Below are positions 1,673 through 48,798 of a stretch of DNA of 48,798 nucleotides, piece after piece. Source of the stretch: a virus; IMG/VR virus record IMGVR_UViG_3300022542_000629, positions 1 through 48,798 of that record; one strand, given 5' to 3'. Within the stretch, counting starts at the first letter, position 1; the number at the start of each line of letters is the position of its first letter. The notes below the pieces were generated by a model. It did not search any database. It had not been told where the DNA came from and saw only the letters and a list, made by a program, of their open reading frames with translations. The translations under genes were made by a program, and so were the position numbers.

Positions 1673-2505
1673 AGGCTCAGGGGCGGCGGAGTTCTCATGT
1701 CGCCGCGCAACTCGACCAGGCAGCCCTGGCGCATCCTTGAATACAGGTAACCAACCGGCTCAGAAGTCGGCAGGCTCACCGTCGGATCGTCGTTTGTGGC
1801 GAATACTGTCAGGTGCGATCCGATCCTGCGATACCTGGTATCCGCAAGTAACCAAAGCCGTTCCTGCGCCCATCCTGTTTCGTGGAAGCGCGTCACCTCG
1901 TCCAGCGCCAGCACTGGAATATCGAGCAGCCGCTGCCAGAAGCCGGACGACTTGTTGTCACTATTGAACAATGAGCGCAAGTGATCAAGCACCAGCGCGA
2001 ACGGTGCATAAAATGCCTCAATCTGCTTGTGCCTCATCTCGTTGACCACGATCTGTAGCGCCAACGTCTTGCCGCCGCCAAAGTCTCCATAGAACGCCAA
2101 GAAGCCGCAGCGGTTGCGGATAGCGTCCTCCATTGCGCGCTTCGCCGCCAGGCGCTGCTTGCTCAGTATCCCGCCGATATTGGTTCGCCACGCCACCAGG
2201 CGATTGTCCAGTTCCGCGCCTTGTAGCCCACAGTTTGCCGTAATGTACTGGAGATGGCGATTATTGCCGCAAGTGTCGCAAGGCGTCAACTTACCGAACC
2301 GCGCATCACCAGGCGGCGCACCCTTACGCACCCAACCGATGCCGCCGCAAGATGGGCAGGTCGGCGGTTGCGGCACGCCATACATCTCAGCGCGGTATGC
2401 TTCTTGTGCCTTGACAGACTGCGAGAAGTCAAGCATTGAGGCCCCCAATGATTGGCGGGCGGTAGTTGGGCGCTCTTGGGTTTGTTGATTGGAATTTGGC
2501 TCCAT
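1669..2505 (-). CDS. DnaC/IstB-like AAA+ ATPase (helicase-loader-like) with an N-terminal CxxCxGxG zinc motif
   Basis: Walker A GDFGGGKT and Walker B VLALDEV. N-terminal CPSCGGIG...CDTCG. An alternative start at ATG 2436 would reduce the overlap with the upstream gene from 77 nt to 8 nt. Confidence 0.75.
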   Translation of the reverse strand: MEPNSNQQTQERPTTARQSLGASMLDFSQSVKAQEAYRAEMYGVPQPPTCPSCGGIGWVRKGAPPGDARFGKLTPCDTCGNNRHLQYITANCGLQGAELDNRLVAWRTNIGGILSKQRLAAKRAMEDAIRNRCGFLAFYGDFGGGKTLALQIVVNEMRHKQIEAFYAPFALVLDHLRSLFNSDNKSSGFWQRLLDIPVLALDEVTRFHETGWAQERLWLLADTRYRRIGSHLTVFATNDDPTVSLPTSEPVGYLYSRMRQGCLVELRGDMRTPPPLSL

Positions 2506-3334
2506 GCTGCTGTCCTCCCTCTCTCCACGCCTTGAACTTTCCCCATGTCTCTCTTACCTGCGCAGGCCTTGGCGCATCGCCCTTCTTGCCGCGCCAGTCG
2601 TTGGCGTACCACCAGGTGGCGAAGGGCTCCATATCGGCGGGGGTTGCGCTGTCTTTACGCAATATCTTCTCGGACTGGTTGAGTTGCTTACGCTGAGTGC
2701 TTGTGAGAGTGGTTAGGTTGATCTGGCAGACGCTTGCCAATACTGCGAACATCTCACGCGCCTCCTGCTGTTTGGGTGAAGGTTCGCGCTTTGACTTAGG
2801 CTCAGAGGGTGGGGCGGTAGCCGCCGAAGGCGAGTCTTTAAGTGCATCTGAATCTGCCTGTGAATCTACATGTGCATCTGAATCTGAATCTGAATCTGAA
2901 TCTGACACCAACTTAGTTGGAGTTTCCTCTTGACCTACTCCCGACCTACTCTCGACCTTGTCTTGACCTTCATCTCCTTTGGGGTCAACGTAACTGGGCG
3001 GTGTGGGAAAGTTACTCTCGGCTTCTTTGGAGGTATCACCTTGATAACCGTGCCAGGTTGGAATCCAGAAATATTCTCTCCCGTTGGCATTATAGCGTTC
3101 AACCATCCCGTGATTGGCATACCAGTTCATAGCCGTTGCTATCATCTCAGGCGTTACATCTTCACGAACGGTCATCACCTTTGACTTAATCCAAGAAGGG
3201 GTATCTAGTCCGCGCCCGCGCCTATCTAGGCCGAGGGGTAGCATTACCCATAGCAAACGGTGAAAGTCATCTGGCATCTCGTTTATGTCTAAACTCTCAG
3301 TTGCCTTCACGTGTAACTTACGCCATTTGGGCAT
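2429..3334 (-). CDS. Replication initiator / replisome organiser (DnaD-like C-terminal region) with an acidic (SD)n linker
   Basis: 301 aa, sited directly upstream of the loader. C-terminal WWYANDWRGKKGDAPRPAQVRETW is typical of phage DnaD/organiser domains. The linker reads SDSDSDSDSD. Confidence 0.55.
   Translation of the reverse strand: MPKWRKLHVKATESLDINEMPDDFHRLLWVMLPLGLDRRGRGLDTPSWIKSKVMTVREDVTPEMIATAMNWYANHGMVERYNANGREYFWIPTWHGYQGDTSKEAESNFPTPPSYVDPKGDEGQDKVESRSGVGQEETPTKLVSDSDSDSDSDAHVDSQADSDALKDSPSAATAPPSEPKSKREPSPKQQEAREMFAVLASVCQINLTTLTSTQRKQLNQSEKILRKDSATPADMEPFATWWYANDWRGKKGDAPRPAQVRETWGKFKAWREGGQQHGAKFQSTNPRAPNYRPPIIGGLNA
2842..2905. repeat. Microsatellite (ATCTGA x5 at 2876..2905) plus a 15-nt direct repeat gtgcatctgaatctg (2842..2856 and 2872..2886)
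   Basis: Read directly from the sequence. Encodes the SD repeat of the initiator linker. Confidence 0.9.
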
Positions 3335-4383: not shown

Positions 4384-4558
4384 CGTCCTTTCCTCCTGTT
4401 GTTCTGTAGCAGGCATCATTGCCCTCCATCCTCTCATCATCCCGTGCCCGCTCAGCCTCTGCCGCCAGGCGCTCGGCTTCCTCTTGCTCGCCGGCACGCA
4501 TTGCCTCTACTAATCTAATCCATAGACTTTCGGTATCTTGCTTTTTCCCTTCGTTCAT
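4370..4558 (-). CDS. Hypothetical acidic coiled protein (62 aa)
   Basis: RBS GGAGGAAG. ATGA overlap with the stop of 4555..5040. Confidence 0.5.
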   Translation of the reverse strand: MNEGKKQDTESLWIRLVEAMRAGEQEEAERLAAEAERARDDERMEGNDACYRTTGGKDDDAR

Positions 4559-5040
4559 TGCGCTTCCTCCTTGTTCAGTTGCGGTCCAAGCAGTTCCCAA
4601 ATTCCGCTATTCCGCAGCCAGTACCGCATGCGCCGCAGCGCCTGCGCCTCTACCTGCCGCACGCGCTCGCGGGTTGTGCCTGTCACCGCCGTCACCTCCT
4701 CCAGCGTATACCGTGGCCCCTCCAGCCCGAACCGCCACGTTAGCACCTGCATATCTCGCTCGTTCAGCATAGCCAGGGCCTGCCGTAACAGTACCTCAAC
4801 GCCGTCAATGAGCACCAGGTGCTTGCCAAGTAGCGAGCGCAAAAGCAGCGTCCACGCCTCGACTTGCCAGCCAGGTAGCGTCGGCGGCTCATAGACGTAC
4901 GGCTCATCTTCCGACAACACGCGGCTCAGTGCCCAGCGCACGAACGCGGAGCGGTTGAGGCCGCGCCTGGCAGCGGCTTCGTCTATGCTCGCCAGCAGCC
5001 CGTCGGACACGGGAACGTTGAGATGTCGCCTCATTGTCAT
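4555..5040 (-). CDS. Ribbon-helix-helix (CopG/Arc-like) domain fused to a sigma-70 region 4 domain
   Basis: N-terminal RRHLNVPVSDGLLASIDEAAARRGLNRSAFVRWALSRVL is RHH-like. C-terminal LNERDMQVLTWRFGLEGPRYTLEEVTAVTGTTRERVRQVEAQALRRMR matches a textbook region 4.2 HTH. Confidence 0.7.
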   Translation of the reverse strand: MTMRRHLNVPVSDGLLASIDEAAARRGLNRSAFVRWALSRVLSEDEPYVYEPPTLPGWQVEAWTLLLRSLLGKHLVLIDGVEVLLRQALAMLNERDMQVLTWRFGLEGPRYTLEEVTAVTGTTRERVRQVEAQALRRMRYWLRNSGIWELLGPQLNKEEAQ

Positions 5041-5165
5041 AGGTTCTCCTCTGTCCTATCAGCGTTATCACTCGCCCGGCCTGCCACTACCATGATGCAG
5101 AGCACCAGAATAGCGAGAATGAGGAAGGCAATGGCGGGGCGGCATAGTTGGCTAAGTTGTATCAT
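5037..5165 (-). CDS. Possible 42-aa single-TM peptide
   Basis: Hand translation MIQLSQLCRPAIAFLILAILVLCIMVVAGRASDNADRTEENL. Its stop overlaps ATG 5040 (ATGA) and its start overlaps the end of 5152..5688. Confidence 0.4.
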   Translation of the reverse strand: MIQLSQLCRPAIAFLILAILVLCIMVVAGRASDNADRTEENL

Positions 5166-22097: not shown

Positions 22098-23070
22098 TTA
22101 CATCTATCGTCGCCCGTTTGACTATCGTGCTCGCCGTGTCAACAGGACCAGCCAGTATGTCGAGACTATATTGACACTGGCTCGTGCAATGGCTGTTGCA
22201 CAGATAGGTGACGTCGCTGCGCAATCTGTCACTAGTCTGGATCGTACCGATAATCTGGCGACTAGCGCAGATGTAGCAGCGTCGGCTATTTCCACACTGA
22301 CCCGCCAGATGGACGCGGTAAGCAGCGCCGAGGTTTCCGCCCTTGCCGCCGTCATCCTGGGACGCACTGAGACGATAGCAGCAGCGGCGATGCTGGCTTT
22401 TAACGTGGCTTTGACGCTGGCGCGCTCGTTGAATATCTCTGCTAGTGCGGATGCCAGTGCGGATGTATCTACGAGTCTTCCCCGCACTGGTGCGTTGGCA
22501 ATGCAGGCCGATGCAACCGCCGAGGCTACAGAAGCATTTGCGCGGCAACTGGCCGCTACTATGGCTGCCGCTGCAACTACAGCGGCAAATTTAATTTTGA
22601 GCCGTGGGGACGGTTTGACTTCACAGGCTGCTGCTACTGCTGATGCAATATTGGCATTGGCACGGCAGGTGATAATAGCCGCAAGCGCGCAAGTGAGCGC
22701 CGAGGCTGCTATGACGTTGGCCCACGCTGAGGCGTTAACGACTCAAGCGGTGCTAGTGATCGAAGCGGCCTTGACACTGGCACGGCAGATGGACATCAGT
22801 ACATTGGGGCAGGCGGATACATCGGCCACGCTGACGTTGTCACTAGAGCGTGCCGTGATCTCACTATCTGAGGCTGCCGCCTATGCCGATATAACATTGA
22901 CGAATGAACGCGCATTGGCGCTGGTAACTGATATCATTGGACAGATATTAGCAATCTGCCGCGCGATGATCATAGCATCGGAGAGTCGGGCGGTGATAGT
23001 ACCGGTAGAGAGTCGGGCAACGATAGTTGCAAGTGAGAGTCGGGCGATGATAATTCCCTGCTCAGAATGA
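22090..23070 (+). CDS. Ala-rich repeat protein (326 aa; about 13 copies of a 20-residue unit plus 3 C-terminal 9-residue repeats)
   Basis: GTG start overlaps the previous stop. Recurring x-L-x-L-A-R-x(7)-A-x(3)-A-x-A units (LTLARAM, LTLARSL, LALARQV, LTLARQM...). Same strand as the operon. Confidence 0.55.
   Translation: MGNYIYRRPFDYRARRVNRTSQYVETILTLARAMAVAQIGDVAAQSVTSLDRTDNLATSADVAASAISTLTRQMDAVSSAEVSALAAVILGRTETIAAAAMLAFNVALTLARSLNISASADASADVSTSLPRTGALAMQADATAEATEAFARQLAATMAAAATTAANLILSRGDGLTSQAAATADAILALARQVIIAASAQVSAEAAMTLAHAEALTTQAVLVIEAALTLARQMDISTLGQADTSATLTLSLERAVISLSEAAAYADITLTNERALALVTDIIGQILAICRAMIIASESRAVIVPVESRATIVASESRAMIIPCSE
22981..23061 (+). repeat. 27-nt tandem repeat x3 (gagagtcgggc at 22981, 23008 and 23035)
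   Basis: Read directly from the sequence. Encodes ESRAVIVPV / ESRATIVAS / ESRAMIIPC. Confidence 0.9.
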
Positions 23071-39390: not shown

Positions 39391-40458
39391 ATGGCTGAGA
39401 AGGGCCTCCTCTTTACAACCGGTGCGACCGGTGACGGCGCGACCGCTTATACTCAGGCAGAGGTTATCCGCTGGCAGCGGCAATTCTTTGTCGGCGCTGA
39501 CAATGAAGGTGTAGCGAAGGATTATCTCAATGAACTAGCGACGACCGGTACTTCCTCACCGGTGGCAACCAATACGGGCGCGGCCCTCATCTTCGGCTTT
39601 CCCTACTGGAATACCGCCAGCGTTGACACTGCCATCCCTACGCCCTCTGCCAATACGCGTATTGACCGCCTCGTGCTGCGCGCCAATTGGTCAGCGCAGA
39701 CCGTGAGAATAACGCGCATCGCAGGCACAGAGGGCACAGGCAACCCGCCGTCTATCGTGCAAACTGATGGCACGACCTGGGACATCCCGCTTTGCCAGGC
39801 GAGTATCACGACCGGCGGTGTCATCACCGTGACAGATGAACGCGAATTCCTTCACCCGAATATCGCTGTTGATGGAGATATGATTGACGATGACACCATA
39901 GACAGCCAGCACTATACTAATGGCTCAATTGACTTGGCGCATATGTCGGCCAATTCGGTTGATAGTCCGCAATATGTAGACGGCTCAATTGATCTGGCCC
40001 ACATGTCGGCTAACTCGGTTGATAGTGACCAGTACGTAGATAGCTCAATTGACACAGTACACCTTGCCGACGATTCAGTAGATGATACAAAGATAGGCAA
40101 TAGAGTACCGCAATTCTTTCGGCGGCAGGGCGGGAGCGCTACTATCTGGAGCACGGAAGGCACGACGACTTATACGCCGACATTAGTCAGAATGCAAGCA
40201 GGATGTGTCGAATGGACTGGCTCGGCAACTAACGCTGGTTATGTGATAGTAACGTTTCCTACTACCTTTTCCTATGCACCCATAGTCATCCCTACGATCT
40301 ATTCTGCCACCGATACGCAAAATGATATTAGCGTCGCCATCCAGTCTCCAGCGACAAACCAGGTTTATTTGGTATGGGTAGACACCGGCGGCGGGACACA
40401 CACGAGCGTCAAGATCAATTGGCTTGCGGTAGGTCCGTATACTGATCCGCCGCCATAG
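39391..40458 (+). CDS. Tail fibre / receptor-binding-like protein with an internal 20-aa tandem repeat
   Basis: 355 aa. GSIDLAHMSANSVDS(P/D)QYVD x2 plus a partial third copy (60-nt DNA period, 39922..40053). RBS AGGAGA. Confidence 0.55.
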   Translation: MAEKGLLFTTGATGDGATAYTQAEVIRWQRQFFVGADNEGVAKDYLNELATTGTSSPVATNTGAALIFGFPYWNTASVDTAIPTPSANTRIDRLVLRANWSAQTVRITRIAGTEGTGNPPSIVQTDGTTWDIPLCQASITTGGVITVTDEREFLHPNIAVDGDMIDDDTIDSQHYTNGSIDLAHMSANSVDSPQYVDGSIDLAHMSANSVDSDQYVDSSIDTVHLADDSVDDTKIGNRVPQFFRRQGGSATIWSTEGTTTYTPTLVRMQAGCVEWTGSATNAGYVIVTFPTTFSYAPIVIPTIYSATDTQNDISVAIQSPATNQVYLVWVDTGGGTHTSVKINWLAVGPYTDPPP

Positions 40459-43115: not shown

Positions 43116-43330
43116 ACATACAAGAGAGAATAGCGTCAGCGTCACGATTACGAGAGCTGGAGAGGCGCATCGCCGCATTAGAGGCGCGTGAGCGCTCATT
43201 GACGTGGTATCTATCTACGGAAGATTTGAAACTAATAGATGCTGGGAGCGCCGGGGCCACTCAGCAGGATTGGGTGGAAATAACTGTAAATGATGTGCAA
43301 GGATACCTACGCGTTTTCAGCACAAAGTGA
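43112..43330 (+). CDS. Small coiled-coil protein (72 aa)
   Basis: ATGA overlap. ORF track. Confidence 0.5.
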   Translation: MNIQERIASASRLRELERRIAALEARERSLTWYLSTEDLKLIDAGSAGATQQDWVEITVNDVQGYLRVFSTK

Positions 43331-43338
43331 GGTGGACG

Positions 43339-44385
43339 ATGACGAACCTTCTTCATAATCCAGGCTTCGAAGCCGACTGGGGCGCAGGCGCATCTCACGA
43401 GGCGCTGATCTGCCGACCCGATACGCCGCCGTACCAGTCGACCGTGGGGAATATTTTCACACCTTCCGGCGGCTGGCTGACCTGGTTCAAGCACGACCCT
43501 GGCACCTTTGATCAGCCAGAGGTGCGGGATGCCTGGGCGGCGCAGTATCCACGCCGCGTGCACAGCGGCGAGAAGGCGATACTCCTGTTCACGTTCAACC
43601 GCCGCCACGATGCGGGCTTCCTGCAACAGGTGCAAGTTGAGCCGGGGCAGCGGTTGCGCCTGACAGCGTTCGCGCATGCTTGGTCAAATCATAACCTGGA
43701 GGGCCACGCGGGCTGCGCCGACGACGGGCGCTGCTCGTGCGGCGTGGGCAGAGAAGTCGTGGCAATCCGCACCGACGAAGTACCGCCGCTGAACGGCGAT
43801 CCGTGGAACGACGCCAGGGGGAACTTTGCCTTCACCGTCGGCATTGACCCGACCGGTGGCATCGACCCGCGAGCCGACACCGTTGAGTGGGGGACGTCAT
43901 GGGCGATATACAACGGCTATTGCCAGCAACTCAGTGTTGAGGCGGAGGCACGAGCGGAGACGGTGACCGCGTTCCTGCGCAGCACAACGATGTGGCGGTT
44001 CAAGCATAATGATGCCTACTGGGACGACGCGGCGCTGGTAGTCGTAGAGGAAGAACCGCCAGAGCCACCTCCGCCAGAAGAGCGGGGCTTGCCGCGAGTT
44101 CAGTATGAGAGAACTTATACCTTACTCCCACCCGACGCAGACGCAGAATGGGCGCTCGCAGTGATAGATGCGACGTGGGACGCGAAGCGATTTACGATTG
44201 GCGGATCAGCTGACGACGCCGGAATCGGCGACCTTGATTATCGCCGCATCATCGCCGTTAATCCCGGCGGTTGGCCCAGTGACCTGGCCGACTTCTATGC
44301 CGAGCACTATCCCGGTGTTGAATACATACCGATTAAGGCGACGACGCCAAAGGCGCTAAGAGAAGCACTAGAAGGGTTAGAATAG
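43339..44385 (+). CDS. CBM_4_9-like carbohydrate-binding protein with an unknown C-terminal domain (348 aa)
   Basis: LHNPGFEADWG opening typical of CBM4/9-type jelly rolls. PPEPPPP linker. RBS GAGGTGG before ATG 43339. Confidence 0.5.
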   Translation: MTNLLHNPGFEADWGAGASHEALICRPDTPPYQSTVGNIFTPSGGWLTWFKHDPGTFDQPEVRDAWAAQYPRRVHSGEKAILLFTFNRRHDAGFLQQVQVEPGQRLRLTAFAHAWSNHNLEGHAGCADDGRCSCGVGREVVAIRTDEVPPLNGDPWNDARGNFAFTVGIDPTGGIDPRADTVEWGTSWAIYNGYCQQLSVEAEARAETVTAFLRSTTMWRFKHNDAYWDDAALVVVEEEPPEPPPPEERGLPRVQYERTYTLLPPDADAEWALAVIDATWDAKRFTIGGSADDAGIGDLDYRRIIAVNPGGWPSDLADFYAEHYPGVEYIPIKATTPKALREALEGLE

Positions 44386-44466
44386 CGTTAGAATGACGTT
44401 AGAAAAGGTTAGATTGTTAGAACAACATTAGAATAAGGTTAGAATAACGTTAGAGCGAGGTTAGAA
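44376..44466 (+). repeat. Array of nine GTTAGAA-type heptamers at 11-bp phasing
   Basis: Copies start at 44376, 44387, 44398, 44408, 44416, 44427, 44438, 44449 and 44460. A tenth isolated copy is at 44656..44662. Confidence 0.95.
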
Positions 44467-44660
44467 TGGACGACATCACGATCACGGGGTATAGCTTCAT
44501 TGTCGCCGACAACACCAGCTACCTACCGTCTGCCGCCGGTGCTCAGAATGAGACGCTAGGGCCTGGCAAAAAAGAGGACTGGGAAGATGCCATGCTGGTG
44601 GCATCTGGACTTCTGCCACGGCTGATAGCGCAGGCGAGGGAGGAGAGATTAGGAGGTTAG
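44466..44660 (+). CDS. Hypothetical protein (64 aa)
   Basis: The ATG lies inside the last heptamer (GAGGTTAGAATG). ORF track. Confidence 0.5.
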   Translation: MDDITITGYSFIVADNTSYLPSAAGAQNETLGPGKKEDWEDAMLVASGLLPRLIAQAREERLGG

Positions 44661-44661
44661 A

Positions 44662-45408
44662 ATGAACGCCATAGACGAACTACTCAAAGACCTAAATAGC
44701 GGCGGGCTGATATTCCGCCCTGCTGATCCCGCGCGCATCTCACTCTCAGTTGACCTCGTGCGTCTCACAGAACTAGCGGCGACGACAGTAGTATTTGAGC
44801 CTGGCGTGGACTTCCTCATCCTGACGCCACGCCTGCGTGCCGAGATGAAGGTGCTGGCACCTGGCCTTACTCTCTATTCACAGCGTGATCCACGCTGGCG
44901 CAATCTCGTCTATGCCGGCGGCATGACATTCGGCAAGGCCGGTTGCTACGTCACTGCCGTGGCCATGATACTGAGCCTCGCAGGCTACACCGACGACCCG
45001 CCGACGGTGGCGGCCAAACTGCGTGAGGCGGGATGCTTCTCTGGTGCACTACTGGGGCGACCCGATAGGATACCGGATGCATACCCGCGCATGCGCTACG
45101 ACGGGCCAGTAGATGTAAGCCATGACGGCCCGCTGCGTTGGCATCATGGCGCGGCAGACATGAAGCGGTTCAAGGCAGAACTGGCGAAGGGGCCTTGCAT
45201 CTTCGAGGCAGATTTCATTCCTATCACGGCAAAGTTTAATCAACACTTTTGCGTCGCCGAGCGATTCACACCAGACGGCAAGGATTTGATTATCGCCGAT
45301 CCGTGGGATGGGACGCGCACCAGATTGCTAGAGCGTTACGCCCAAGATCACTGGGACTTAAGTCGGGCACTCTACGGCATGCGCTTACTTCGCATCAAAG
45401 GAACCTAA
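44662..45408 (+). CDS. Putative endolysin, C39-like cysteine peptidase fold
   Basis: YSQRDPRWRN...GKAGCYVTAVAMIL (Cys nucleophile region) and ...HFCVAERF...IIADPWDG (His/Asp region), the pattern of Peptidase_C39_2-like proteins. Confidence 0.5.
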   Translation: MNAIDELLKDLNSGGLIFRPADPARISLSVDLVRLTELAATTVVFEPGVDFLILTPRLRAEMKVLAPGLTLYSQRDPRWRNLVYAGGMTFGKAGCYVTAVAMILSLAGYTDDPPTVAAKLREAGCFSGALLGRPDRIPDAYPRMRYDGPVDVSHDGPLRWHHGAADMKRFKAELAKGPCIFEADFIPITAKFNQHFCVAERFTPDGKDLIIADPWDGTRTRLLERYAQDHWDLSRALYGMRLLRIKGT

Positions 45409-45409
45409 C

Positions 45410-45691
45410 ATGGCAGTCACAAACAAAATGCTACTCGACGAACTCGGACGCCTCCAGTCCCGCGTCAATGAACTGGCCGCTGGCATTGCATTAGTATGCG
45501 AACGCGCGGCGAAACTGGAGACCTGGTGTAATGGGCATAACGAGAACGTGCATCCACGCATGCGCGAACGCATCGACGCTGTGGCAGGCGCACAGGTGCG
45601 GCAGGGTGAGCGGCTGTGGAAAGTTGCCCTGCAGATTGCCAATCTCGCGGCGCTACTGGCGACGATGACCAAGCTGGCGGGCGCTTGGTAA
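45410..45691 (+). CDS. Lysis-associated small protein with a C-terminal hydrophobic helix (XhlA/holin-like)
   Basis: N-terminal coiled region and C-terminal WKVALQIANLAALLATMTKLAGAW. Lies next to the endolysin-like gene. Confidence 0.4.
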   Translation: MAVTNKMLLDELGRLQSRVNELAAGIALVCERAAKLETWCNGHNENVHPRMRERIDAVAGAQVRQGERLWKVALQIANLAALLATMTKLAGAW

Positions 45692-46137
45692 GCCTTTGCC
45701 TCGCCGCTTGTATCACCGCGGATACCTGCCAAGCGCTGCCGAGCGAGTGCCCGCCGCTGCTTCCGGGCTGGGCCACGCCACGCTGGATACATGATGCTGC
45801 CGGGATAGTGGCCGGCGAGACGGTGCACGACTGCGCCACGTGCGACCGGTGGATTGCGTGCACGGTGGTCAAGGACGTGACGCTGCGCGGGTATCACCCG
45901 TGGCGATTGAGGCCCGGTCGCTGGCACGGGTGGAGGCGGCCCGGGGAGCGACACCTAACGGCAGTTGAGGCCGCGCTCAAAGGCGAATGTAGGGACACGC
46001 CGGAATGTGCCTATCTCGGCTCGCTTTCAGACTACACTCGAAACTGGCGTTTCAATCTGGCGCGTGAGCAACAGGTGTCGGCTATTGGCAATTCCCGGGG
46101 CGTCATTGTCTGTGTCCTGCCACTCAATGATAACTGA
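45616..46137 (+). CDS. Cys-rich hypothetical protein; start unresolved
   Basis: The only in-frame ATG (45616) overlaps the previous gene by 76 nt. TTG 45685 is an alternative start. Contains 8+ Cys residues (CQALPSEC, CATCDRWIAC, CRDTPEC). Confidence 0.4.
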   Translation: MESCPADCQSRGATGDDDQAGGRLVSLCLAACITADTCQALPSECPPLLPGWATPRWIHDAAGIVAGETVHDCATCDRWIACTVVKDVTLRGYHPWRLRPGRWHGWRRPGERHLTAVEAALKGECRDTPECAYLGSLSDYTRNWRFNLAREQQVSAIGNSRGVIVCVLPLNDN

Positions 46138-46601: not shown

Positions 46602-46840
46602 TATTCACCTCCTGTATCTAACCACTCAAACAGCCGCCCCCCACAGCACGCCAGCAGGATCAGCGACCGGTGTTCCTGCCACGTCTCACCGGTGGCCTGG
46701 CCCAGTGCCTCGGCCAGTTGCTCGATGTCGAAGGCGCAAAATTGGCTAGCATCCCAGCGCCCTTTGATTGCTAGATAGCGATTACTTTGGCGCAGTGAGA
46801 AGATGAGCGGCCCGCCGGTTTCCTTGGTTGTTAGGAACAT
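46601..46840 (-). CDS. Hypothetical protein (79 aa from ATG 46840)
   Basis: RBS GGAGGAGGCGAC before ATG 46840. Confidence 0.55.
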   Translation of the reverse strand: MFLTTKETGGPLIFSLRQSNRYLAIKGRWDASQFCAFDIEQLAEALGQATGETWQEHRSLILLACCGGRLFEWLDTGGE

Positions 46841-47064
46841 GTCGCCTCCTCCACTCTCGCCAACTCCACCTTCATCGGCTCGGCACCCGCCACGGGCGCT
46901 TGCCACGTCAGCGTGTCGCCGATCGCCATCGCGCTGAGCAATCGCACCAGCGGCGCTTTAAGGCTCAGGCACTCTTTGCCATCGCCACCAGTTGCGACGA
47001 CGCGAAGTTGCAACTCCTCGTTATTCAGCTTAACTGTCACGATCATGCCAAGTTTTAGTTTCAT
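46831..47064 (-). CDS. GreA/GreB C-terminal-domain-like protein (77 aa, no coiled-coil finger)
   Basis: LGMIVTVKLNNEELQLRVVATGG...LSLKAPLVRLLSAMAIGDTLTWQAP...MKVELARVE matches the pattern G..V.v....ee....iVg.....iS..SPla.aLlG...GD.v. RBS CAGGAGGCAAG. Confidence 0.55.
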   Translation of the reverse strand: MKLKLGMIVTVKLNNEELQLRVVATGGDGKECLSLKAPLVRLLSAMAIGDTLTWQAPVAGAEPMKVELARVEEATCS

Positions 47065-47459
47065 CTTGCCTCCTGTCTTGGTATAACTACTATTTCCACG
47101 CGCGGCCTGTCGCACCCGATGCGTTTGGTGATGAGTGCGCTAAATATCTGGCTATCGTCGTGATAGACGATGCCTTGTAAGGAATCCGCGATGCTCTTGG
47201 CGAGGTTGTCGTAATCCACGCGCCGCCTATCTGCACGGTAGAATGTCAGTTGAATCGATAGCGGCCCCTTCATTGGTTCCTGCGTCCACGTCAGCGCCGC
47301 CGCGTCCCTGATCAACGCCTCATAGTCCCTGGTGGCTTCTGGCGTGTAAGCATGGCCGTCTACAACGCGCGGGCGACCCTTTGGAATTGGATTGCCCCCT
47401 ACCGTCAATTCAAAGATGCGGCGGGAACCGTAGAATGCTTGCTTCTCAGTCACTGGCAT
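47061..47459 (-). CDS. rusA: RusA-family Holliday junction resolvase
   Basis: PKGRPRV...YTPEATRDYE...DYDNLAKSIADSLQGIVYHDDSQI. RBS GAGGAGG before ATG 47459. Confidence 0.75.
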   Translation of the reverse strand: MPVTEKQAFYGSRRIFELTVGGNPIPKGRPRVVDGHAYTPEATRDYEALIRDAAALTWTQEPMKGPLSIQLTFYRADRRRVDYDNLAKSIADSLQGIVYHDDSQIFSALITKRIGCDRPRVEIVVIPRQEAR

Positions 47460-47798: not shown

Positions 47799-48798
47799 TC
47801 ACTGCGGCTTTTCCATGCATAAAATCAACTCCCAGTCGATGCGCGGTGCTCCCTTTTTCTCGCATAAAATTCTGAAAAAGCTCTTATACCACTTCTCCAT
47901 GCTTACTTCATCACCGTCCAACGTGATCTGCATAATGTCAGCATTCTTGTTCATCCAGGCGCGATGCTTGCAGACAGTGTGGAAGCCGACAGACTGGCAT
48001 AGCGCCTCCCATTGCCCAGGGAAATCTACCAGCCGCCCCGACCTGACGAACATTTTAAGAACCCATATCGCATGCCCGCCCGGCGCGAGCACCTTATAGA
48101 CCTCCTCCAATATCTGCCTACTTGCGGCCCAGAACGTGGAGCCGGTTTCGTTGCCCATTTGTCCTTCGGTTTGTCCATATTCGTCAGTTTGCCCAGCGAG
48201 TACTGAGCCAACATGTCCAAATTTCTCGCGGTTGGCAGCATTCAAATTATGCGCTACGTCACTGGTTTCCCACGGCGGCGATGATAGGCAAAGTTCCGCC
48301 CTCCCCGTCTCCGCGCCCGCCTCCAGCGCCGCCGCGTGGTCGCCGGTGGGCAGGGCGGCGAGTTGGCCGTCAGACTGCGGGATGTCATAGTCACGCTTGC
48401 ATCGGTTGTATGCCTCATCCTTGTCGTAGGAATGAAAGCCTTTTGTCTCGCCGCCTTTGACGTAAGTGGACTGGAATGGAGGTGAGGACAGGGCCAAGTC
48501 AAAAGAGCCTTCGGGCATCTGCGCCAGTTGACCCGGGCCACTTCCATAACCGTTCATTATGCGCGCCTGTGAATTTGGCCCGGCCTTACCTAGTTTCTCA
48601 ATATCTATTCCAGGCTTGCCCTCACGAATACTGCCAATGTAGGGCGGTGAGCCCAGGGCCAGCGCCGCCTCGAAGCCGGTGTCGGGCAGGTTGCCCAGGT
48701 TGCCTGCGGTTTGGCCGTAATCTGCTTTAATCGAGCGGCCGCCAGGAGCACCAGAGGCTTCCCAATCTATCCCGTCTCCGCCGTGAACTGTTCGGCTA
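47799..48798 (-). CDS. Same methyltransferase, C-terminal part. The last 141 nt duplicate 1..141.
   Basis: The frame of ORF 47799..48557 stays open upstream to the window end (...TGFEAALALGSPPYIGSIREGKPGIDIEKLGKAGPNSQARIMNGY...). 48657 is divisible by 3, so it joins 1..821 in frame, giving 559 aa in total. SPPY at 48639..48650, SPPF at 48474..48485, SPPW at 48270..48281, then VLAPGGHAIWVLK. Confidence 0.8.
   Translation of the reverse strand, partial: SRTVHGGDGIDWEASGAPGGRSIKADYGQTAGNLGNLPDTGFEAALALGSPPYIGSIREGKPGIDIEKLGKAGPNSQARIMNGYGSGPGQLAQMPEGSFDLALSSPPFQSTYVKGGETKGFHSYDKDEAYNRCKRDYDIPQSDGQLAALPTGDHAAALEAGAETGRAELCLSSPPWETSDVAHNLNAANREKFGHVGSVLAGQTDEYGQTEGQMGNETGSTFWAASRQILEEVYKVLAPGGHAIWVLKMFVRSGRLVDFPGQWEALCQSVGFHTVCKHRAWMNKNADIMQITLDGDEVSMEKWYKSFFRILCEKKGAPRIDWELILCMEKPQ
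48658..48798. repeat. Terminal overlap copy B (identical to 1..141)
   Basis: Same as copy A. The identity runs exactly to both window edges. Confidence 0.95.

Follow-up and report, generated by a model that had tools for sequence, protein, structure and literature searches.

What maintains nine head-to-tail copies of a short motif exactly in the gap that separates the last tail-region gene of a phage from its lysis genes, and would such an array be read as DNA or as RNA? The locus lies in a 48,798-nt phage sequence that was analyzed as a whole (hereafter the window), a circular contig with an arbitrary start that is not at the array; the phage is uncultivated and probably infects Anaerolineae bacteria. 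As far as sequence comparison can tell, the array has the look of an element that selection keeps for controlling the expression of the lysis genes, and the reading that we favor, with a probability of about 40%, is that it acts at the mRNA level on the translation of the lysis cassette and is read by a putative sequence-specific factor.

The array occupies positions 44376–44468 on the + strand and consists of nine units with the core (G/A)TTAGA(A), starting at 44376, 44387, 44398, 44408, 44416, 44427, 44438, 44449, and 44460. A motif scan confirmed all nine positions given in the initial annotation, while the 11-bp spacing that it had counted in seven of the eight intervals was found in six (11, 11, 10, 8, 11, 11, 11, 11); TRF described the array with a period of 11 and 7.5 copies. 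Units 1–4 form block A (44376–44415, +; GTTAGAATAGC, GTTAGAATGAC, GTTAGAAAAG, GTTAGATT, with lengths of 11, 11, 10, and 8 nt) and units 5–8 form block B (44416–44459, +; GTTAGAACAAC, ATTAGAATAAG, GTTAGAATAAC, GTTAGAGCGAG, each 11 nt). The array fills the untranslated gap between two genes, beginning at the stop codon of the upstream one and ending on the ATG of a 64-aa gene. The in-frame TAG of the upstream gene (44383–44385) falls within the 4-nt spacer of unit 1 and not, as first annotated, in its core, where the TAG (44378–44380) is out of frame. At the downstream end, unit 8 finishes with GAGG, which serves as the Shine-Dalgarno (SD) site of the 64-aa gene, and unit 9, GTTAGAATG (44460–44468, +), provides the SD-to-start spacer together with the ATG. 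This start context (GAGGTTAGAATG) was correctly recognized from the outset, as was the same register at the lysin ATG (GGAGGTTAGAATG), where a second copy of the element, formed by two degenerate units GATTAGGAG GTTAGAATG (44645–44664, +), extends over the last bases of the 64-aa gene and bears the lysin SD and ATG. The array-type context was found only at these two starts, the other genes in the window having ordinary GGAGGT-N5-8-ATG sites.

Exact GTTAGAA occurs nine times on both strands of the window, compared with 3.3 ± 1.6 times in shuffled sequences (nine or more in 0/100 shuffles). Seven of the nine matches fall within 44376–44662 on the + strand; the remaining two (570 and 11052, minus strand), which had been noted by eye as the only other copies, are at chance level, and no second array site was detected elsewhere in the phage genome when both strands were scanned. 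All units are in sense orientation within a co-directional gene block. At the RNA level, UAG recurs every 11 nt (8-nt spacers), with a second UAG 2 nt further on in unit 1 only; there are 13 stop codons per 90 nt, in all three frames, just 6 C residues, and a weak predicted fold (−12.7 kcal/mol for 95 nt). At the DNA level, the cumulative unit offsets (0, 11, 22, 32, 40, 51, 62, 73, 84) add up to 8.0 turns (10.5 bp per turn), each unit lying within ± 0.2 turn. The promoter scan of 44376–44470 gave no promoter-like call, and no terminator-like site was found at the array.

The upstream gene (43327–44385, +; 352 aa) is the last tail-region gene before the lysis cassette and ends with the codons CTA GAA GGG TTA GAA TAG (L E G L E stop), a unit-like sequence. 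It had no match in Pfam or PHROGs, which leaves its initial label as CBM-like without family support; its homologs in relatives precede the array or the lysin. The 64-aa gene (44466–44660, +) is real, with homologs at 66% and 63% identity; it has the same place behind the array in relative L362 and is present in L363 without any array. It gives the appearance of a cassette that entered between two junction units. The lysin (44662–45408, +) has a Peptidase_C39_2 catalytic domain after a family-specific N-terminal domain of ~60 aa that is fused to Amidase_2 in relatives. The rest of the cassette (45410–46137, +) comprises a 93-aa gene and a gene of about 150–173 aa, co-directional with the lysin and last of the + strand block, whose homologs come after the lysin in L255, L128, and L298. 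Elsewhere, the window encodes a RHH-Sigma70_r4 protein (4555–5040), a Gre-like protein (46831–47115), and the terminase genes terS/terL (24.5–26.3 kb), the latter ~20 kb away from the array. Among the window ORFs scanned against Pfam and PHROGs (about two thirds of all), no Par or replication-initiator family, no Trans_reg_C or ParR-type protein, and neither an integrase nor a repressor was found. No tRNA was found, and a suppressor or recoding function was therefore dropped.

Searches for known counterparts were negative for GenBank phages (DNA and protein), for single proteins in the first IMG/VR searches, and for Rfam, which gave no match at gathering score in the window and only chance-level ones at E values up to 10 in 44200–44800. 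Literature searches gave only primers and unrelated matches for the heptamer and nothing relevant on repeats upstream of endolysins. A two-unit DNA pattern proved too unspecific (120 chance matches), and three- and four-unit patterns mostly recovered unrelated arrays: perfect 11-mer tandem repeats, arrays near the ends of T7-like contigs, and ori-like iterons upstream of DnaB_N-like or NinB-like genes.

The comparison proposed in the initial annotation, whether related phages carry the array between the same genes, had a divided outcome. It is present there and in register in L255, L362, L124, L126, L127, L212, L331, L357, L358, L211, and L300, and absent in several relatives of the same gene order (L123, L128/129, L132, L133, L210, L355/356, L360/361), in which the upstream stop abuts or overlaps the lysin ATG and an ordinary AGGAGG lies within the upstream gene. 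Because some relatives do without it, the array is dispensable. The diverged relatives L362 and L255 have orthologous 8-unit arrays in which block A keeps its order of lengths, including the odd 10- and 8-nt units; the lengths common to the three genomes are 11, 11, 10, 8, 11, 11, (11), 11, and the last two units are identical or near-identical (unit 8 of the window is shared unchanged with L255, and L362 departs from it by 1 nt). The other array-bearing relatives have 2–5 units, often degenerate, giving an allelic range of 0, 2, 3, 4, 5, 8, and 9 units. The array ends with GTTAGAATG at the start codon in all array-bearing relatives except L357 (start unit GTTAGGATAATG), and the window and L362 each show this register at two different genes, the L362 counterpart of the lysin-start copy, GGATTAGAATGA, being a stop/start overlap. 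Identical arrays were recovered from independent assemblies of the same phage (L001/L002, L127/L298/L299, L358/L359). The locus is at the same time a mosaic joint, where upstream genes come with or without an extra C-terminal domain, the following gene is either the small gene or the lysin, and the lysins carry C39_2, Amidase_2, or M23 catalytic domains after the same N-terminal domain. Taken together, the alignments identify the array as a family trait, stably inherited and homologous among relatives, rather than an accident of one genome.

Between pairs of the window, L362, and L255, TTAGA is identical in 33–34 of 35 positions (94–97%) and the spacers in 10–18 of 24 (42–75%; core vs. spacer Fisher p from 1e−5 to 0.015), while third codon positions of the flanking genes are 41–62% identical in most cases and 25% in the lysin N-terminus. 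Since the core is far more conserved than both the spacers and the flanking third codon positions, this pattern marks it as being under purifying selection, with spacers that evolve almost freely. A neutral hypervariable tandem repeat (VNTR) was rejected on the core/spacer contrast, the identical arrays across assemblies, and the unit-length pattern kept across diverged genomes. One sub-lineage (L212, L331, L357, L358, L211, L300) no longer has the core in its middle units, so the constraint is lineage-dependent. Functional relevance of the array is supported by its presence in register in several relatives together with the selection on its core. The initial annotation had offered a lysis operator or an RNA-level effect among several possibilities; both are viable and are favored among its options.

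As to origin, the unit would be a tandem duplicate of an ancestral coupled stop/start junction, AGG-TTA-GAA-TGA, that encoded R-L-E-stop for the upstream gene, with AGG as SD and ATGA as overlapping start; internal ATGs would have been lost after duplication, mostly to ATA. In agreement with such an origin, stop and start overlap in the L362 junction GGA TTA GAA TGA, the sequence ...AATGA is still present in internal units of L126 and of the window, and unit 1 encodes the R-L-E-stop with which upstream genes end. A pristine array would also form a relay of overlapping mini-ORFs (ATG AGG TTA GAA TGA); this was considered as the selected function and rejected, as it survives in L126 only and the internal ATGs are mostly lost.

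Under the favored mRNA-level reading, the array would work in cis on the late polycistronic mRNA, where direct stop/start coupling would be replaced by a 50–90-nt, C-poor, weakly structured leader of start-site look-alikes that makes the lysis-gene start independently accessible. A putative UUAGA reader of phage or host origin would bind cooperatively along the repeats, with the two sites nearest the start bracketing the SD, and its binding would set the amount or timing of lysis-gene translation, in a response that would grow steeper or stronger as units are added. For the region from −17 to +8, the predicted opening energy is lower at array-bearing than at array-less starts (Mann-Whitney p = 0.002), a modest contrast between phylogenetically non-independent loci. 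We infer that the conserved 10- and 8-nt units fit a flexible single strand more easily than rigid side-by-side binding on a duplex. On the other side, the fixed register with the ATG is explicable by the origin alone, and the cumulative spacing of 8.0 turns is what a DNA-face model predicts; we also know of no RNA-binding protein that reads 5-nt cores at an 11-nt pitch. Direct reading by the ribosome was rejected: UUAGA is not complementary to the anti-SD region, and pairing with the 16S 3′ tail would amount to just 4–5 A/U pairs in the wrong order relative to the SD, judged on a generic 16S 3′ end that may differ from the host rRNA.

RNA operators that cover start sites are known for TRAP (9–11 G/UAG triplets), CsrA (several GGA sites, one on the SD), and HutP (UAG repeats). 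The array shares with them reiterated short single-strand motifs, poorly conserved spacers, last motifs over SD and AUG, and a variable number of sites, and every unit contains UAG, as in TRAP/HutP-type motifs. The spacing differs, being 2–3 nt for TRAP and 4 nt for HutP compared with 8 nt here, GGA is absent from the array units, and no TRAP, HutP, or CsrA homolog is known to be linked to these phages. A closer likeness in position is offered by the start-associated sequences (SAS/ESAS) of Cluster K mycobacteriophages, 13-bp motifs dispersed as single copies at 11–19 or more early-region gene starts, for which a role in translation initiation is suspected, with a reader that may come from host or phage and may be RNA or protein (Pope et al. 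2011, PMC3203893). Both elements are phage-specific and asymmetric, keep one orientation, lie at the ribosome-binding site a few bases before the ATG and sometimes over the upstream stop, persist in diverged relatives ahead of genes from different families, and are suspected to act in translation initiation; in our case it is GTTAGAATG that holds this position, at two window starts and at the lysin or small-gene start of the array-bearing relatives other than L357. They differ in that the array has 2–9 tandem phased copies at one locus and one or two lysis-gene starts, instead of single copies dispersed over many. The SAS motif GGGATAGGAGCCC is unrelated to RGGTTAGAAT, and the conserved part contains the SD in SAS, while in the array it is the spacer TTAGA, with variable SD-like GG.

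The main rival, a DNA-level operator array, which is possible but on balance unlikely, would be bound head to tail on one duplex face by a winged-helix (OmpR/PhoB/ArcA-type) or ribbon-helix-helix (ParR/omega-type) protein of host or phage, acting as a graded roadblock, or less likely as an activator, for RNA polymerase passing from the structural genes into the lysis cassette. OmpR/PhoB/ArcA boxes are direct repeats of a 7-bp core and a 4-bp spacer, with a GT(T)A-type core at a 10–11-bp pitch, situated at or upstream of the promoter −35, and ArcA operators have 2–5 repeats. The initial annotation had pointed to PhoB/OmpR, and the 7 + 4 geometry at about one helical turn is indeed real: the array has the head-to-tail arrangement, the ~11-bp pitch (6/8 intervals of 11 bp, with the 10- and 8-bp units as exceptions to the box of 6–7-bp core and 4–5-bp spacer), the GTTA-type core, the free spacers, and the variable repeat number. 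The phasing of its units to within ± 0.2 turn over 8.0 turns agrees with this reading, and a protein that reads bases predicts conservation of the core only. Unrelated phages have GTTAGA/TTAGA arrays at 11 bp in apparently DNA-level contexts, upstream of replication genes (L213, L221, L291, L370) or near contig ends beside terminase-like genes (L224, L262). Moreover, RHH-Sigma70_r4 homologs occur in 4/4 array-bearing genomes with enough coverage (the window, L255, L358, and the L331 contig), in a comparison that covered array-bearing genomes. The promoter geometry of such boxes, however, is lacking, as the last unit overlaps the ATG of an operon-internal gene, with no room for a −10 element, start site, and leader, and no sigma-70-like promoter was called. 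The conserved 8- and 10-bp units would set neighboring proteins out of register or make them clash, no second site exists in the genome and no unit near the RHH-sigma4 genes of relatives, and Trans_reg_C or ParR-type proteins are missing among the scanned window ORFs.

For roadblock action, the array would be a clustered counterpart of the stoperators of mycobacteriophage L5, which are single 13-bp sites, scattered about 30 per genome, bound by the prophage repressor and thought to block elongating RNA polymerase. Like the array, they are asymmetric, follow the direction of transcription, and occupy small gaps between genes, close to stop and start codons. Unlike them, the array is one cluster with no copies elsewhere, in a phage with no integrase or repressor among the scanned ORFs. 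Stoperators have themselves been contrasted with SAS (PMC3203893).

More doubtful is a passive spacer with no trans-acting reader, in which a decayed tandem duplication of the stop/start junction would have been kept only for uncoupling lysin translation from that of the preceding gene, for stops in all frames, and for an unstructured start. The duplication origin that it shares with the mRNA-level reading is well supported, and the 13 stops in 90 nt over three frames, the 6 C residues, the more accessible array-bearing starts, the degenerate middle units of one sub-lineage, and the dispensability of the element all suit it. Most single-base core variants in relatives also keep a stop (GTAAGA, GTGAGA, GTTTGA, GTTAAA, GCTAGA), but this retention is not significant, 13/18 possible single-base variants keeping one anyway. 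Low structure, stops, and few C residues would be satisfied by very many sequences, and 33–34 of 35 identical TTAGA positions beside near-neutral spacers in three genomes are not predicted; concerted evolution would have homogenized the spacers as well.

Two further readings have little to recommend them. That the junction unit is a linker, serving as microhomology for the exchange of lysis cassettes between phages with arrays as scars or amplifications, is very improbable: the array does lie at a mosaic joint with a variable upstream C-terminus, a small gene or lysin behind it, and varied lysin catalytic domains, and the small gene is bracketed by the junction unit in the window and in L362, but a 7–11-nt match is short for recombination, the small gene comes without the motif in L363, and a linker needs one copy, which leaves eight or nine phased copies and selection on each core unexplained. 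We give hardly any credence to tandem promoter elements, either TTAGAA as −35 with TAGAAT as −10 or −35-like sites for a phage sigma-like factor. The 11-bp period sets TTAGAA and TAGAAT exactly 17 bp apart, TAGAAT agrees with TATAAT in 5/6 positions, the late −35 of SPO1 is CGTTAGA, a sequence present in three units, and the phage has a Sigma70_r4 protein. Nevertheless, the scan called nothing in the array, TTAGAA agrees with TTGACA in just 3/6 positions, the T that should be critical at the end of the −10 ranks with the least conserved positions while the G of TAGAAT is invariant, relatives with 2–4 units have no space for −35, −10, start site, and leader before the ATG, and the host lineage appears to use the canonical TTGACA-17-TAAAAT promoters seen in L211/L212. 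Sigma-dependent pausing at the −10-like TAGAAT was rejected on the same variable T and invariant G.

The pac site, centromere, or iteron origin first suggested for the array, that is, an essential DNA-handling site (pac/cos for the small terminase, plasmid-type centromere, or origin), has next to no probability, since the element is dispensable in close relatives of the same gene order whose stop and start touch, varies from 2 to 9 copies with decayed middle units, lies ~20 kb from terS/terL among tail and lysis genes with no Par or Rep protein among the scanned ORFs, and is not at the start, arbitrary as that is, of the circular contig, although such sites typically consist of phased direct repeats, there is one array per genome, and similar arrays stand at replication genes and near genome ends of unrelated phages. 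R1 parC/ParR iterons and the pac repeats of small terminases are essential and lie next to par or terminase genes. The array resembles R1 parC/ParR in its roughly ten 11-bp direct repeats in two blocks and in the cooperative reading by an oligomerizing protein that is proposed for it; it differs in having a tail-region gene, the 64-aa gene, and the lysin as neighbors in place of partition genes, and in a copy number of 0–9 among relatives. The match of nine repeats with the subunit number of TerS rings is numerology, given that the copy number varies.

Returning to control at the mRNA level, phage fitness depends heavily on when lysis occurs, and this timing is commonly attributed to holin triggering. 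A more far-reaching form of our reading, rather improbable in itself, would make the array a lysis clock that runs at translation, acting upstream of holin timing or in its place, in which an oligomeric UUAGA-reading RNA-binding protein of the phage or its Anaerolineae host closes or opens the lysis start cooperatively, with a sharpness that evolution tunes through the repeat number (0–9). A variant, almost equally novel, would have a host two-component response regulator read the repeats on DNA and thus couple lysis to a physiological signal of the host. To our knowledge, conserved cis elements for translation or transcription of lysis cassettes are little documented, and we know of none for phages of Chloroflexota/Anaerolineae, nor of a cultured model for these phages. 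The element offers a compact and testable handle, with 90 nt, an invariant 5-nt core, and a natural series of 0, 2, 3, 4, 5, 8, and 9 units, that may help to isolate the reader protein and to learn if repeat number tunes lysis. It also points to a simple evolutionary route, in which a coupled stop/start junction is amplified by duplication into a regulatory array, and which may apply to other intercistronic repeats.

The window represents a phage genome assembled as a circle of 48,657 bp, its start being arbitrary and its two ends sharing an exact 141-bp overlap (1-141 = 48658-48798); its source is JGI metagenome 3300022540, with a second assembly available from SRR7716470. The minus-strand genes occupy the arc that leads from about 17 kb backwards across the origin to 46.3 kb, while the plus-strand genes extend from 17.5 to 46.1 kb in the order terS/terL (24.5-26.3 kb), tail genes and lysis genes, a layout that places the repeat array (44376-44468) among genes of a single direction. 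Neither promoter-like nor terminator-like sites were called at the array, no tRNA was found in the window, and neither an Rfam family nor a similar phage in GenBank was found. Related endolysin-like proteins (lysins) were named from Anaerolineae/Chloroflexi MAGs, one being located on a 4.87-Mb Anaerolineae contig, and the hosts are therefore, going by these names, probably Anaerolineae.

Nine plus-strand units were read from positions 44100-44900, namely GTTAGAATAGC, GTTAGAATGAC, GTTAGAAAAG, GTTAGATT, GTTAGAACAAC, ATTAGAATAAG, GTTAGAATAAC, GTTAGAGCGAG and GTTAGAATG, starting at 44376, 44387, 44398, 44408, 44416, 44427, 44438, 44449 and 44460, respectively. All nine starts agree with the initial annotation, while its 11-bp spacing holds for six of the eight intervals instead of seven, and the in-frame stop TAG, which it had placed in copy 1, lies in the unit 1 spacer (44383-44385) and not in the core. 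Tandem Repeats Finder reported a period of 11 and 7.5 copies. TTAGA is unchanged in 9/9 units, and the array region carries 13 stops in 90 nt, covering all frames, and only 6 C in 90. The array takes up the entire interval separating a 352-aa gene (43327-44385, plus strand; no Pfam or PHROG match) and a 64-aa ORF (44466-44660, plus strand), which is followed by the lysin (44662-45408, plus strand; Peptidase_C39_2, E = 8.6e-7). Both the 64-aa gene and the lysin bear GGAGGTTAGAATG at their starts, the latter with a degenerate unit, ATTAGGAG, just before it; the remaining window genes have ordinary GGAGGT-N5-8-ATG sites. Exact GTTAGAA occurs nine times in the window vs. 3.3 ± 1.6 in shuffles (nine reached in 0/100), and seven of the nine matches are confined to 287 bases on the plus strand, where the background rate predicts ~0.01 copies, which leads us to exclude a chance origin of the cluster.

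A census was based on lysin homologs and the fetched loci encoding them (L-numbers). The number of units was nine (plus two at the lysin start) in the window, eight in L255 (same metagenome as the window) and L362, four in L124, three in L125 and L126, two in L127 (= L298 = L299), about five with decayed middle ones in L212, L331, L357, L358/359 and L211, about four, decayed, in L300, and zero in L123, L128/129, L132, L133, L210, L355/356, L360/361 and L363. Every array is closed by GTTAGAATG on a start codon, with the sole exception of L357, which has GTTAGGATAATG. In the array-less relatives the lysin ATG is overlapped or abutted by the upstream stop, and an AGGAGG site lies within the last upstream codons. 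The element is kept while neighbouring genes are shuffled: some upstream genes have an additional C-terminal domain and others do not, the small gene is missing from part of the loci, and the lysin carries C39_2 or Amidase_2 after a common N-terminal domain of ~60 aa. Homologs 66% and 63% identical show the 64-aa gene to be real; one lies behind the L362 array and one in the array-free L363.

The ~60-aa domain (MN/S-x-I-x-E-L-F/L-x-D-x-N-G-G...; window 44662-44850, L255 1662-1850, L363 from 507) is joined in relatives to three catalytic domains, Peptidase_C39_2, Amidase_2 and Peptidase_M23. The 64-aa protein also matches 4-7 repeated stretches in proteins of 781-1669 aa (P0227, P0229, P0230) and could be such a repeat domain occurring on its own. 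In L211 (6730-6883) and L212 (6733-6895) a GIY-YIG/NUMOD3 homing-endonuclease gene has been inserted just behind the lysin; in front of it, the two loci share a nearly identical stretch of 150 bp that contains a canonical TTGACA-17-TAAAAT promoter. A GIY-YIG gene lies behind the lysin in L360/L361 too. The array-less L210 encodes, directly behind the lysin, a 209-aa receiver-domain (Response_reg) protein (4513-5142) with no recognisable output domain.

The small gene of L362 ends in GGA TTA GAA TGA, its stop overlapped by the lysin ATG, and in array-bearing phages unit 1 (AGG TTA GAA TAA/TAG) supplies the closing R-L-E-stop of the upstream gene; AATGA can still be read in internal units of L126 and the window. 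The 11-nt unit GGTTAGAATGA thus appears to be a complete coupled junction, comprising an SD-like GG, the TTA GAA codons as spacer and the ATGA overlap. The array would have arisen by tandem duplication of such a stop/start junction, which would explain the stop in the first unit, the start in the last and the fixed ATG register, and internal ATGs would mostly have turned into ATA.

The arrays of the window, L362 and L255 are orthologous (unit lengths 11,11,10,8,11,11,(11),11), their MAFFT alignment containing a single gap, one unit long; in the last two units the window and L255 agree fully, and L362 departs from them by one base. Among these three, TTAGA positions were identical at 33-34 of 35 and spacers at 10-18 of 24 (conservation contrast, Fisher p 1e-5 to 0.015), with flanking-gene identities of 0.41-0.62 at third codon positions in most genes (0.25 in the lysin N-terminus) and 0.59-0.92 at second positions. 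Selection is maintaining the unit spacing and five bases per unit. Concerted evolution was rejected as the cause of core conservation, as the spacers would be homogenised as well. Separate assemblies of one phage had identical arrays, and we therefore exclude a hypervariable or neutral repeat.

The invariant core calls for a sequence-specific reader, since structure avoidance, stops in all frames and low C would not be enough to hold five bases constant across 25 units. We tentatively place this reading at the RNA level (probability roughly 0.4), because the units lie on the sense strand of a transcribed gap, the SD lies between the two start-proximal units, which also cover the ATG, the conserved unit lengths of 8 and 10 nt are easier to accommodate on a flexible strand than in rigid binding to a duplex, and opening was predicted to be easier at array-bearing than at array-less starts (Mann-Whitney p = 0.002; loci not phylogenetically independent). 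A DNA operator, which we consider less likely, would suit the 7+4 repeat geometry, the total length of 84 bp (8.0 helical turns) and the RHH-Sigma70_r4 protein, which is encoded by the window and by all array-bearing relatives with coverage, but promoter geometry is absent at the array and there is no second site in the genome or around the sigma4 genes, no TTAGA pairs being found near these genes in the window and relatives. The pac, centromere or origin proposed in the initial annotation is disfavoured, as the dispensability, graded copy number and single occurrence per genome of the array point to an element that modulates the lysis cassette and not to an essential DNA-handling site. Readings as a promoter, a pausing site, a mini-ORF relay, an rRNA-pairing site, a recombination linker or a passive spacer were also weighed, as rivals or as rejected ideas.

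The RHH-Sigma70_r4 protein of the window (4555-5040, minus strand) is a 161-aa fusion of ribbon-helix-helix (Pfam E = 1.8e-5) and sigma-70 region 4 (E = 1.4e-13) with homologs in L255, L358, L472 and L473, and is a candidate late regulator. A small protein at 46831-47115 (minus strand) resembles the GreA/GreB C-terminal domain (Pfam E = 1.9e-4; its 21.8 bits fall short of the 26.9 cut-off), has a homolog only in L255 among the fetched loci, and is possibly a factor with which the phage acts on RNA polymerase. Other repeats in the window are ATCTGA x10 plus the 11-mer CTCTCGACCTA x3.9 (2846-2969), which lie within the minus-strand ORF 2429-3334 and are probably coding sequence for a repetitive peptide segment (Ser/Asp-rich and related) and not an intergenic site, as well as a 27-bp repeat (22981-23052, 2.7 copies) and a 60-bp repeat (39922-40053, 2.2 copies) in plus-strand structural-block genes. 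Arrays of 3-5 units of GTTAGA or ATTAGA, pitched at 11 bp, also occur in unrelated phages: in L213 (7528-7566), L221, L291 and L370 they precede genes of the replication region (DnaB_N-like or NinB-like), and in L224 and L262 they are ~300 bp or less from contig ends and adjoin terminase-like genes.

Among described systems, the start-associated sequence of Cluster K mycobacteriophages comes nearest, a conserved motif at the RBS position, in one orientation, whose reader is unknown (PMC3203893). The array is likewise conserved, single-oriented and at the RBS position, but the start-associated sequence occurs as single copies scattered over many genes (PMC3203893). The geometry is akin to response-regulator boxes and ParR iterons, and the logic to TRAP- or CsrA-type multi-site operators or L5 stoperators, yet the array lacks a defining feature of each. 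We rate it as a phased direct-repeat cis-regulatory array in an unusual place and an unstudied phage group, for which the selection signal is solid and the mechanism is one that we infer; the natural allelic series of unit numbers makes the element experimentally tractable.
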